The notes beneath the pieces were generated by a model. The model searched no databases, had not been told where the DNA came from, and saw only the letters and a list, made by a program, of their open reading frames with translations. The translations under genes and the position numbers were made by a program. From a candidate division FCPU426 bacterium (GTDB lineage: Bacteria; Oederibacteriota; PGYV01; Palsa-1178), in the NCBI GenBank assembly GCA_963840035.1, contig CAWIXE010000002.1, positions 544,001 through 608,000 on the forward strand: a stretch of DNA of 64,000 nucleotides, read 5' to 3'. Positions 38,502 to 42,671 of the stretch are shown here, piece by piece (the first letter of the stretch is position 1; each line of letters starts with the position of its first letter).

Positions 38502-38566
38502 ATTGGTATACGCAAGCGTTTTGTTCTCGTAGCGGGCGCATATCATTCGTCCGTTTAACCGGAATA

Positions 38567-38882
38567 GTGTCGTGACCCAAATGTGGTAGAAAAAAGTTAT
38601 ATAAATACATGAATGGTATTATATTGGACAAAAACAGAGGTTTTGTTTATAATATCGAAAATGTAGGGGTTATTTGTACAGGAAGCTGTGTGTTGTGTTT
38701 GTTATGTAAGCGCAAAAGAATATGAGAAAAGTAGTTTATTTAAGTGCTTAAAAGCAACATTATGACTTCTATATTTTGTTGAGGTTATTATAATAAAAAA
38801 TACGTTAAATACTAGAAATAGTGAAAACGACAATAAAGTAAGGCATTTTATACGAGAATGTCTTGAGTCACGACGCGGACCC
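38567..38882 (+). mobile_element. Internally deleted, degenerate copy of the 39763-40906 element
   Basis: Left about 130 bp aligns by eye with 39769-39905; right end AATGTCTTGAGTCACGACGCGGACCC matches 40881-40906 with one mismatch. Confidence 0.82.
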
Positions 38883-39103
38883 GGTATGTTGAATAGCATA
38901 GTGACTTATGTGAAGACCGGTAATTGGCCTAGTCAAATTCAATTAGATAAATGTGGCCCTTGTATTGCAGATATTATGTCCAGCTTGGGTGAATGTACAG
39001 GAGAAGACGATAATCATACATATACTACGAGATGTGTCGATCCGTCAGAATTGGTCTGTGAATTGGCGCCGAGTTTGCAATAAATATCATTTTTAAACAT
39101 GAG

Positions 39104-39625
39104 GTGAAAATGAAAAAACTAACATTAATTATTATTTTTGTTGTTCTTGCGGTAATTGGGGCTAGCAATTATTTTGTTTACTCAAATCATGATAAAGCAA
39201 TCAACTACGATTTAAAAAATGTTTTTATTCCAAAAAAATGGTTTGTATTAAGATATAAAATTGATGAAAAGCGAAAAGTATTTAAAACATATACGCCCGA
39301 CACAACGTCAATGCTAATAGTAGCAACTGTTTATAATAAAATAACAGAAACGACGGTAAAAAGTTTAATTTCTGATTTAAATGTTTACAGACTCAATTTT
39401 ACAGACTATGATCTGATTCAAAAAAAAGAGCTTTCAACAAATGTTTTGTTTTATCGTTATGCAACTAGAAGCGATGAATTATTTTATATAATCGACGTAT
39501 TTGCTAAAAAACTGAATGATTCTTGCATTTATTTATACTACGCAAAAAAGGTAAGTAAAAAAAATGAGCCATACAATTTTGACGTACTGGATTTTATTGT
39601 AAAAATTAATGCCGAACTTGTTTGA
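39104..39625 (+). CDS. Hypothetical AT-rich exported protein (possible immunity protein)
   Basis: Signal/TM N-terminus, low GC, follows a Cys-rich gene fragment. Confidence 0.65.
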   Translation: MKMKKLTLIIIFVVLAVIGASNYFVYSNHDKAINYDLKNVFIPKKWFVLRYKIDEKRKVFKTYTPDTTSMLIVATVYNKITETTVKSLISDLNVYRLNFTDYDLIQKKELSTNVLFYRYATRSDELFYIIDVFAKKLNDSCIYLYYAKKVSKKNEPYNFDVLDFIVKINAELV

Positions 39626-39762
39626 TTAATATATTTACGTACAACATAATTAGGGTAACTGGTGGGTGTTAGGATGATGCATGCGACAATTTTTCGCTAC
39701 GGTAACCAGAACAGGCTTACAATCGAGAGGTATGCGGATGACAGTTATCTGAGGTAATAACC

Positions 39763-40906
39763 GGGACCGTGTCGTGACTTAAGACATTGTAGAAAAAAAG
39801 GCTATAAAAATAAGGCCTTAGTATTATAATTGGATAAATACAAGGGTTTTGCTTATAATATCGAAAATATAGGGGGGATTTATGAGCAGGCAGTTGCGTA
39901 TTGTATTTCCTGGTGCGGTTTATCATGTAAGCGCCAGGGGGTATGAGAAAAGTTTTATATTTAAGGATTATAAAGACAAACAAAGGCTGATGGATATTAT
40001 TTTTGACGTACATAGAAAGTACAGTTTTATTATTTATGCATATGCAATCATGGATAATCATTATCATCTAATAATGGAAACAATCGAACCAAATCTGTCA
40101 TTTATCATGTACCATATAAATAAGAGATACGGGACGTATTATAATATCAGGCATGAAAGAAAAGGCTATGTTTTTGAAAAGCGTTTTAGCGCTTTTATAA
40201 TACAAAAAGGGGAAGCCATGAAAGCTCAGGTTCAGTATGTTCATATGAACCCGATGCGCGCAAATATGGAAAAAGTATTGGGGGAATACAAGTGGACCAG
40301 CCATAATTATTACCTTGGGAACGAAAAACAGTCGATAGCTGACAGTGAATTTGTGCTTTCGATGTTTGGTGAAGACACAAAGACAGCGATACCGGAGTAT
40401 GAAGCTTATATGGCAAAATCACGCAGATTCGGCAAATCAAGGACTGAAATCGGCGTTTATGGTACGGGAATAATAGGGGAGGAAAGTTTTGTAAAACAAA
40501 TAAAACTTATAGCTAATAATAAAAAGCTGCCCGAAGCTATAAACAAACGCAAGGAAATGAAAAAGATTTACGGATATGGGGAAATAATAAGGGCTGTAAG
40601 CGGATATTACGGAATTTCTGAAGTGGTTTTGTGCTCTAAAAAGGGGTGTTGGAATATATATAAGAAAGCAGCGATTTATTTATTGTTAAATGATGGGGGA
40701 TTAACAGGAGCAGACATAGGCAGGCTGTTTGAAATGCATCAAAGCTCAATATCAAAAGCTTCAAACCGGCTTAAAGATAAAATGGAGAAGGATAAAGAAA
40801 TAGCAAGTGAAATAGAAAAAATACGTGTTAAATACGTAAAAATACGCGAAGCACTAATAAAATAAGGCGTTTTATATTAGAATGTCTTGAGTCACGACAC
40901 GGACCC
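39763..40906 (+). mobile_element. Y1/HUH transposase element bounded by 26-bp inverted repeats
   Basis: GGGACCGTGTCGTGACTTAAGACATT (39763-39788) and AATGTCTTGAGTCACGACACGGACCC (40881-40906); 2 mismatches. Confidence 0.85.
39882..40865 (+). CDS. Y1/HUH transposase-like protein with C-terminal DnaA-C-like HTH
   Basis: MSRQLRIVFPGAVYHV, MDNHYH, YVHMNP and YKWTS; C-terminal AAIYL...GLTGADIGRLF. Confidence 0.9.
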   Translation: MSRQLRIVFPGAVYHVSARGYEKSFIFKDYKDKQRLMDIIFDVHRKYSFIIYAYAIMDNHYHLIMETIEPNLSFIMYHINKRYGTYYNIRHERKGYVFEKRFSAFIIQKGEAMKAQVQYVHMNPMRANMEKVLGEYKWTSHNYYLGNEKQSIADSEFVLSMFGEDTKTAIPEYEAYMAKSRRFGKSRTEIGVYGTGIIGEESFVKQIKLIANNKKLPEAINKRKEMKKIYGYGEIIRAVSGYYGISEVVLCSKKGCWNIYKKAAIYLLLNDGGLTGADIGRLFEMHQSSISKASNRLKDKMEKDKEIASEIEKIRVKYVKIREALIK

Positions 40907-41142
40907 TGTAGCAGGAGAATATGCAGGCATGACAGGGGTGTCGGCCGGCGGGGCCTATTATGCGACTATTTATGCCTGTGATGGACTTGTTTACCGGACG
41001 TGGATAGACGCCGGTGCGGATAACGCATATAAATAAACAGTAATTTTGTGCTTGACAAAATCCTGAAATATGATAATATTAACGTAATAAATGTAGCAGA
41101 TTTTACTACATGTTTCAAAAATTTTTTGGAGGTTCCAGAAGT

Positions 41143-41471: not shown

Positions 41472-42671
41472 TAAAAAGTGTAAGATGAAAAACCCCACAT
41501 AGAAAAAGAAAAAGTCCCAACAGAACAACTGATGGTATTATGTAAGTGCGACCAAACATAAACCAAAGGAGCTGGACTGATGGGACAAGTAAATAGTACC
41601 ACAAGAACGTATTTAAGGGAAAGCGAAAGATACAAGATTGAGGCTTTACGGCAGAAGAAATTAACAGGTCGCGAGATAGGCCGTTTGTTGGGTAGAAATC
41701 ACAGGACGATAAACAGAGAGATAAAAAGAGGCACGATTGAGCTGTTGAATAGTGATTTAACAACCCGGAAGGTATATAAAGCGCACATAGGCCAGGAAAT
41801 ACATGATGAAAAGTCAAAGCACAAAGGACCAGGATTAAAGATAGGCAGCGACCACAAACTGGCTGAATACATAGAACTAACCATAAAGAAAGACCGATAC
41901 TCTCCGGCCGCGGTTGCAGCAACAATCAAGAACAAAGAACAGAAATTTACTGTGACTTTAAGTGCAAAAACCATTTATAACTATATAGGCAAAGAAGTTT
42001 TTTATGGCATAAGCAATGAGGATTTATGGATGAAACGCAAAAGGAAAAACAAGAACAAAAGAGTGCGTGTTTTCGATAAGAACAGACTTTGCAAGAGCAT
42101 AGAAGACAGACCAAAAGAGGCCAATGAAAGATCTGAATACGGTCACTGGGAAATCGATTGCGTCAAAGGAAAGCAAGGGGATAAAGAATGTTTGTTGACG
42201 TTGAGTGAAAGGAAGACAAGAAAGGAAATAATTGAGAAAATGAAGTCAGCCTCAAATGAAGAAGTCGACAGAGTTCTGACGAAGTTGGAACAGAAATACA
42301 AAGAAAATTTTAAGGATATTTTTAAGAGTATCACGGCAGATAATGGCTCGGAGTTCTTGAACTGGGAGTTTTTAGAAGCCAGCAAAGTATTTAATGGACA
42401 AAAAAGGACAAATATATATTTTGCTCACCCTTATTGTTCCTGTGAAAGAGGTACAAACGAGAACTCAAACAGGATGATAAGACGGTTTATACCCAAGGGA
42501 ACCAGCATAGGCCCTATAAGCAATAAGGAAATCAAGAAAATAGAGACATGGATGAACAATTACCCCAGAAAGGTAATTGGATACGAAACTGCGACACAAA
42601 TGACAAATCAAATCTTTACAAGAAAAATGCCTCAGTTGGTTGGGGTGGGGTTTTAATTGTTGCAACTTACG
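41472..42671 (+). mobile_element. IS30-family insertion sequence (1200 bp)
   Basis: Imperfect 27-bp TIRs with shared inner AAAACCCCAC; flanked by a 15-bp direct repeat at 41457-41471 and 42672-42686. Confidence 0.85.
41580..42656 (+). CDS. IS30-family DDE transposase
   Basis: N-terminal HTH (TINREIKRG), GHWEID, ITADNGSEF and ERGTNEN motifs. Confidence 0.95.
   Translation: MGQVNSTTRTYLRESERYKIEALRQKKLTGREIGRLLGRNHRTINREIKRGTIELLNSDLTTRKVYKAHIGQEIHDEKSKHKGPGLKIGSDHKLAEYIELTIKKDRYSPAAVAATIKNKEQKFTVTLSAKTIYNYIGKEVFYGISNEDLWMKRKRKNKNKRVRVFDKNRLCKSIEDRPKEANERSEYGHWEIDCVKGKQGDKECLLTLSERKTRKEIIEKMKSASNEEVDRVLTKLEQKYKENFKDIFKSITADNGSEFLNWEFLEASKVFNGQKRTNIYFAHPYCSCERGTNENSNRMIRRFIPKGTSIGPISNKEIKKIETWMNNYPRKVIGYETATQMTNQIFTRKMPQLVGVGF

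Follow-up and report, generated by a model that had tools for sequence, protein, structure and literature searches.

TIRtrons, in which the gene of a Y1 transposase of the HUH type lies between long inverted repeats, are common and pose the question of how inverted repeats are processed by an HUH enzyme, which acts on single strands. One such locus lies in the stretch of 64,000 nucleotides analyzed here (the window), which belongs to a 3.46-Mb genome (G000 in locus labels, with C1, C2, and C3 as its contigs). We asked what the element at this locus recognizes, whether it moves as a unit, and what its ends do to neighboring genes.

The element lies between a hydrogenase gene with its terminator on one side and a cold-shock gene on the other, and a shorter copy stands upstream of it (Table 1). 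The genome holds one full copy. As the original prediction had it, the full element ends in 26-bp inverted repeats without target duplication: the two repeats agree at 24 of 26 positions (a repeat finder stretches the pair to 43 nt at 81%), and no direct repeat was found abutting either end. An A/T-rich subterminal motif, present in direct orientation at both ends, discriminates left-type from right-type ends. Sequence common to copies runs 7-8 nt past the 26-bp repeats, so that the two units extend from about 38554 to 38890 and from about 39756 to 40913. Since the left spacer is the same at the rpoN locus of this genome (see below) and the right spacer of the short copy agrees with the right end there at 7 of 8 nt, tips are predicted near 39756, 38554, and 38890; the right spacer of the full element is unlike the other two right ends (3/8). 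One weak RNA run was present among the sequencing runs, with reads over the cold-shock gene only. The window also contains an IS30-family transposase (41580-42656), of which the genome has four copies (at least 99.8% identical), one of them within an array on C2 (940421-941620) that is described below.

Table 1. Features of the two related units and of the DNA between them, in window coordinates
Feature	Positions	Strand	Remarks
GTAG-tagged REP-type hairpin	38529..38553	+	Separate repeat family; abuts predicted left tip of short copy
Short copy, left outer spacer, 7 nt	38554..38560	+	5/7 as in full element; predicted tip 38553/38554
Short copy, left inverted repeat, decayed	38561..38586	+	Core 38567-38576 intact
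Short copy, decayed promoter region and frameshifted transposase start	38587..38760	+	Consensus -35/-10 at 38625-38653
Short copy, transposase 3' remnant and right subterminal motif	38770..38856	+	Sequence match to full element
Short copy, right inverted repeat	38857..38882	-	25/26 as in full right repeat
Short copy, right outer spacer, 8 nt	38883..38890	+	7/8 in common with rpoN-locus right end; holds ATG of 65-aa ORF
65-aa Cys-rich ORF	38886..39083	+	Likely 5'-truncated tail of larger gene; putatively toxin-tip-like
173-aa AT-rich ORF, hydrophobic N-terminus	39104..39625	+	Cargo between the two copies
Full element, left outer spacer, 7 nt	39756..39762	+	Same letters at rpoN-locus left end; predicted tip 39755/39756
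Full element, left inverted repeat, 26 bp	39763..39788	+	G-rich tip, then two 7-nt-spaced sub-repeats
Left subterminal motif	39802..39819	+	Direct-orientation repeat at 40854-40871
Predicted sigma-70-like promoter for transposase	39831..39859	+	Consensus match only
TIRYT (Y1 HUH transposase), 327 aa	39882..40865	+	Y1 core and C-terminal DnaA-domain-IV-like HTH
Full element, right inverted repeat, 26 bp	40881..40906	-	Pairs with left repeat
Outer right flank	40907..41036	+	Spacer, then start-less open stretch of 42 codons; likely truncated gene tail

A Y1 gene with an extra C-terminal HTH had been proposed, and the protein bears this out. The Pfam model Y1_Tnp matches above its cut-off (27.2 bits, residues 14-121), and the motifs NHYH (residues 59-62) and YVHMNP (residues 119-124) are present, with H60-Y-H62, Y119, and N123-P124 invariant among 12 close homologs. 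A close homolog carries the source label Candidatus Goldiibacteriota. The C-terminal part resembles DnaA domain IV: DnaA models match it at E 6e-9, and Pfam Bac_DnaA_C falls below its cut-off (E 0.003, residues 234-295). The NCBIfam RAYT model NF047646 gave an E-value of 1.5e-18, but 67 bits against a cut-off of 80. The AlphaFold model is weak overall (pLDDT 61.8, pTM 0.43) and better in the C-terminal part. Its first fold match is 3pvp, a DNA-binding domain of DnaA (target TM 0.85, rmsd 1.7 Å, E 1.3e-3), followed by the RAYT 4er8 and IS608 TnpA; no fold match reached E 0.001. A PDB sequence search using the homolog alignment returned no matches.

Transposases of the IS200/IS605 family nick and join single strands, and the same chemistry is assumed here for the window element. 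The element shares with this family (IS608, ISDra2) the catalytic fold and the absence of target duplication, whereas its protein lacks Y-x-x-x-Q and, with an extra 190 aa, is not of the short core-only kind, and inverted repeats take the place of subterminal hairpins. The Y-x-x-x-NP class is common to the window protein and the REPtron (E. coli TnpA-REP, PDB 4er8), from which the window element differs by its non-hairpin flanking repeats and the extra HTH. Identity as a REPtron was considered and rejected: the nearest clear GT[AG]G REP lies 1.2 kb from the left repeat, on one side only. As a HUH element of the TIR type, it is rightly placed apart from both IS200/IS605 and the REP-flanked RAYTs, as had been proposed.

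The original prediction also called this a poorly characterized type of element, which overstates its novelty. The window element is a TIRtron whose TIRYT fits TnpA-Y1 subclass 2.1.2, with the features of the class that were tested; the class has already been named and described, and the window locus is an ordinary example of it. In the available text of Di Nocera, De Gregorio, and Rocco 2013 (PMC3733652), Y1 genes with long flanking inverted repeats are termed TIRYTs and the units TIRtrons; the repeats are also dispersed and moderately abundant, with dimers and clusters, and one genome may hold several TIRYTs with different repeats. The window element likewise combines a Y1 HUH gene, long inverted repeats that are not REPs, and dispersed repeat copies (24 strong sites in this genome). 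The motif GGGGWSAS is given there as common but not required, other TIRs being unrelated; the window repeat agrees with it at 6 of 8 positions at both ends, and 37 of 87 distinct repeats of homologs contain it exactly. Whole-unit movement, cut positions, truncation of neighbors, and gene-punctuating arrays, on which the comparisons below bear, are not described in that text. According to the available text of Quentin et al. 2018 (PMC6006769), subclass 2.1 is found in about 15% of species, and subclass 2.1.2 has Bac_DnaA_C and repeats that do not resemble DnaA boxes. RAYT group 1 of Bertels et al. 2017 corresponds to this subclass. From what is given there, the window protein shares with this subclass NHYH, Y-x-x-x-NP, a core of about 110 aa, a serine motif past the core, a C-terminal Bac_DnaA_C-like HTH, and the lack of flanking REPs; the subclass motifs NH[YF]H and Y[IV]HLNP read NHYH and YVHMNP in it (M for L). 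In the available text of these authors (Quentin et al. 2018; Bertels et al. 2017, 10.1101/119735), recognition of the repeats by the HTH is doubted and evidence of mobility is reported as not found, whereas our sequence comparisons favor both recognition and mobility.

Homologs were gathered by an alignment-based scan of genome contigs, a single-protein scan having returned none. Among 188 homolog loci fetched, 164 had enough flank (the window locus and redundant records included). The original prediction had named a lack of repeats at homologous genes as evidence against it; instead, an inverted repeat (score of at least 14) surrounds the gene at 99 of the 164 loci, compared with 0 of 106 same-shaped controls shifted by 2.5 kb. 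The 99 loci represent 87 distinct repeats, kin among them not being independent, and the remaining 65 loci have no detectable repeat. The closest homologs (61-64% identity) carry nearly the same repeat as the window element. A repeat profile found 25 sites in G000, 24 of them above 20 bits, whereas the reversed genome gave none that reached 15 bits; the genome-wide search that had been suggested gave strong sites in number, but the short copy once only. No match to the exact repeat pattern was found in viral contigs.

The body of the repeat is periodic. In 30 distinct repeat bodies (kin included), bases 7 nt apart agree at a frequency of 0.49, compared with 0.29 ± 0.02 in shuffles (z = 9.4), and lag 7 alone stands out among the lags tested. 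At three window ends, folding equaled that of shuffled sequences (z of 0.15, -0.89, and 1.45), and a REP-like hairpin reading of the repeat was rejected on this ground. This anatomy would suit an HTH that binds duplex DNA rather than recognition of hairpins. Both the 7-bp period and the DnaA-domain-IV fold match, the latter taken from a predicted model, suggest that the HTH may bind the repeats.

Relatives in other genomes suggest that the unit is mobile. Within the closest family, L026 (in G012) and L109 agree at 94% across 1159 nt, which comprise the element alone, and have different flanks, the shared stretch running from about 10 nt before the repeat core to about 6 nt after it; L110 and L111 (85%) provide a third flank context. 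Among distant relatives (about 30% protein identity), copies that are 97-99.8% identical stand in unrelated flanks in G073, G076, and G078. Since near-identical relatives occupy unrelated places, the element likely jumps as a unit. One could suppose instead that the gene is a domesticated, immobile RAYT-like gene and that its repeats spread like REPs and are rearranged by host recombination at short homologies. Near-identical whole units in unrelated flanks, within as well as between genomes, make this highly improbable, as does the available text of Bertels et al. 2017 (10.1101/119735), in which group 1 is the most IS-like of the true RAYT groups, with 6.3% near-identical duplicates.

The same relatives locate the ends. 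In 18 copies from G073, G076, and G078 (the copies at L254 and in G055, G027, and G072 were left out), what the copies have in common ends some 4-10 nt beyond the G/C run. None of the 18 has a duplication abutting its ends, and the longest flank repeat was one of 7 nt, off the ends, in a single copy. In the window family, conservation fades 5-8 nt outside the tip at 44 left-type and 28 right-type sites, whose automatic typing includes a few errors and two or three chance matches. The boundaries had been predicted to coincide with the repeats; the borders do fall near them, but since identity between copies continues for about 4-10 bp past the repeat, the true ends should lie beyond those boundaries, most of this evidence coming from relatives that are about 30% identical in protein. 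The search for empty sites that had been suggested yielded no clean empty/filled pair for the window element or any homolog. The sister genomes examined for the G073 and G076 copies gave one pair only, with G074, and it covers a single junction. For the G012 element, G022 and G023 share the right flank only, from about 20 nt past the repeat, and the upstream gene differs. At the window locus, all five relatives have other genes after the hydrogenase gene. In these relatives (L189-L193), the hydrogenase is about 12 residues shorter at the C-terminus, and a ferredoxin-reductase-like gene comes next in four of the five.

Orientation was also compared with replication-associated base skew: elements lie on the G-rich strand at 7 of 8 loci, which is no excess over long ORFs (1966 of 2233; 88%). 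Among homolog loci, with duplicates kept, 45 of 57 lie on the G-rich strand when total skew is used, and 26 of 36 when fourfold sites are used. At one locus (L211, G077:C24), the TIRYT inverted repeat continues without mismatch (100% identity) into the two flanks for 300 bp or more; either the flanking DNA has been duplicated in inverted orientation, which a simple same-strand model would not produce, or the assembly is at fault.

A second locus with both kinds of ends lies on C1, where rpoN and hpf are 9.5 kb apart in G000, compared with 113-188 bp in all five family relatives. The insert consists, in order, of a REP, a transposase 3' remnant, a right end, four Rhs fragments accompanied by small partner genes, a left end, and a decayed promoter, so that a right end and a left end stand at the borders of the 9.5-kb Rhs insert. 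The four orphan Rhs core-plus-tip fragments (C1:1157500-1166400, L023) have cores that are 93-97% identical, and tblastn found no full-length Rhs gene in the G000 assembly. Rhs-type fragments flanked by TIRtrons occur in G078 (L244) and G076 (L261) as well.

The short copy in the window was predicted to keep both ends, the promoter region, and a decayed gene start. The right repeat, the promoter region, and the decayed gene start are indeed there, but the left repeat, which starts near 38561 rather than 38567, is badly decayed, retaining a 10-bp core and roughly 17 of 26 positions by alignment. Compared with the full element, the copy is 71% identical over 208 nt at the left and 81% over 95 nt at the right, and it retains about 90 nt of the 3' end of the transposase gene. 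Its anatomy is that of a non-autonomous derivative, as proposed, but not of a member of a spreading family: it occurs once in the genome, and with the left end decayed, the idea of a spreading MITE was rejected. A 150-bp two-ended mini of the sister repeat variant is located at C1:218327-218464.

Between the two window copies lie 865 bp of cargo with a G+C content of 0.32, compared with 0.47 for the genome. The 65-aa ORF is likely a truncated tail, because its ATG falls within the right spacer; it has no Pfam or NCBIfam match, the 173-aa protein has no Pfam, NCBIfam, or homolog match, and flanking fragments around the window units have no other match within the genome. The two copies may have carried this cargo as a composite or translocatable unit, via their outer ends or an IS26-like circle, a possibility that is not exclusive of one-ended joining. 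The low G+C content of the cargo agrees with it, as does the recurrence at the rpoN locus of the layout right end, cargo, left end, the inner ends being best preserved at both loci. In addition, full copies in G078 stand in tandem and in the same orientation, separated by Rhs-type fragments, and pairs are found in G073, G076, and G072. However, the window copies differ by 19-29% and are thus of different age, decay has affected the outer left end, no homolog of the cargo was found by which its movement could be followed, and several local insertions would produce the same arrangement. We regard a composite unit as unlikely.

The ends also affect neighboring genes. An ORF that is continuous in G074 is cut at a right tip in G073, and the downstream sequence is 99% identical between the two. 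Directly downstream of the full elements of G073 and G076, their own right end is repeated, over 239 and 119 bp, respectively, and in one of these two cases the right end of another TIRYT family comes next. Left tips cut gene starts in G012 and G022 (truncated starts at L025 and L027). These truncations and duplicated ends fit the joining of a tip to an arbitrary site, which would give a deletion if the site is downstream and a duplication if it is upstream. On a smaller scale, a 15-nt tandem duplication of right tip plus spacer is present at G000:C1:1157480-1157510, similar tip stutters occur in G055 and G073, and doubled left ends in G078, in G012, and at 339.7 kb of C1 in G000.

Single ends are further concentrated in arrays. 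In C2:927772-946172, 11 co-oriented right-type ends occupy 18.4 kb. In most cases a single gene or short operon separates one end from the next, and ends belonging to a second TIRYT family are interspersed; the genes include methylase/UvrD (at the edge), Nmad3, TPR, Kelch, a nucleotidyltransferase pair, and an exonuclease. For several of them, fewer than 110 nt separate the stop codon from the repeat, where a left end would not fit. Left-type ends predominate in the arrays of G012, from a genus of the same order, with 9 in 12.5 kb. Four modules (a PIN pair, YhcG, a 435-aa gene, and a T5orf172 gene) are common to three species of one genus at 88-93%, with different neighbors and with borders at or in repeats; some of the junctions sit in repeat bodies, off the tips. 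Also in G012, six paralogous NHL-repeat lipoprotein genes (52-64% identical) form a run flanked by two left ends (L024:8159-15152).

Integron cassette arrays have co-oriented repeats between unrelated accessory genes, and in IS26 pseudo-compound transposons direct copies bracket cargo. The window system differs from both in that its enzyme is of the HUH type, not a tyrosine recombinase or DDE enzyme, and its joints are often imprecise. Integron attC-type folded sites were rejected, there being no notable hairpin in the window ends, and no IntI tyrosine recombinase was found among the C2 array proteins scanned. Could the arrays nevertheless be built in an integron-like manner, with tip-for-tip exchange of co-oriented ends moving circles of a gene plus one end, and the window cargo as one such cassette? 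The orderly C2 array is more than chance would place together (24 sites placed at random gave at most 5 per 20 kb in 20,000 trials), and the left-type arrays of G012 and the shuffling of modules among three species, with borders at or in repeats, point the same way. But tips also cut genes (probably the 65-aa ORF in the window; L025, L027, and G073/G074), three different repeat families are stacked at joints, joints between cargo and inner end are off the tips and variable in length, co-orientation is expected from the 88% strand bias of genes, and neither a circle nor an array reordered in close strains was seen. Gene-cutting tips and duplicated element ends fit loose end-joining better than tidy cassettes, and a cassette system of this kind appears improbable.

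In our view, the whole units, the truncations, the duplications, and the piles of ends are probably the work of an IS-like unit that also joins its ends loosely, one at a time. Under such a mechanism, the transposase gene and its 26-bp inverted repeats would move as an insertion-sequence-like unit without target duplication, the adjoining short copy being an older, deleted one. The DnaA-like HTH would bind the 7-bp-periodic repeat body as duplex DNA, while the HUH/Tyr119 site would nick and rejoin single strands at a position some 7-8 nt beyond the G-rich tip. Probably the enzyme can also use a single end, whose tip would be joined to any site nearby; this would lead to genes truncated by tips, ends duplicated in tandem, and piles of solo ends in accessory regions. 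The sequences themselves show the anatomy, the catalytic motifs, the link between repeat and gene, near-identical relatives in unrelated flanks, and junctions close to tips; binding of the repeats by the HTH, the strand that is cut, the exact cut site, one-ended joining, and the present activity of the window copy are what we infer.

The comparisons thus yield a testable design: cleavage 7-8 nt beyond the G-rich tip, insertion without target duplication, an HTH on a 7-bp-periodic site, and one-ended joining. A widespread class thereby gains concrete predicted cut sites. The names TIRYT and TIRtron are rare in the literature searched, and the TIRtron literature found reports, in its available text, no bench test of these elements; supplements of the class papers could list boundaries or members. 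A bolder extension, which we hold possible but on balance doubtful, is that TIRYTs act as recombinases of the HUH type: the HTH would read a duplex site with a 7-bp period, and the nickase would join tips to each other or to DNA arriving from elsewhere. Integron-like arrays of defense, toxin-antitoxin, Rhs toxin-immunity, and surface-protein genes would be built and reshuffled in this way, as a Y1-run gene capture and perhaps a source of orphan Rhs modules. If the enzyme does build arrays, this would be an unrecognized route of accessory-gene capture. Nothing relevant on HUH-driven cassette arrays or Rhs links was found in a literature search that covered main texts, mostly of papers outside subscription.

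A GTAG REP hairpin stands at the left border of both loci of the window repeat variant, abutting the predicted tip in the window and 230 nt from the repeat at the rpoN locus (G000:C1:1157252-1157276), whereas every locus of the sister variant is more than 15 kb away from any REP (49 REP sites scored). It is possible that this variant targets REP hairpins (n = 2). Also present in the genome are a short RAYT (C2:115.6 kb), whose flanking REPs belong to a family with about 20 copies, and two more TIRYT genes (C3:278093-279058 and C3:318387-319385; 32-33% identity) with their own repeat families, one with a 30-bp repeat (16 sites with up to 7 mismatches) and the other with a self-complementary repeat.
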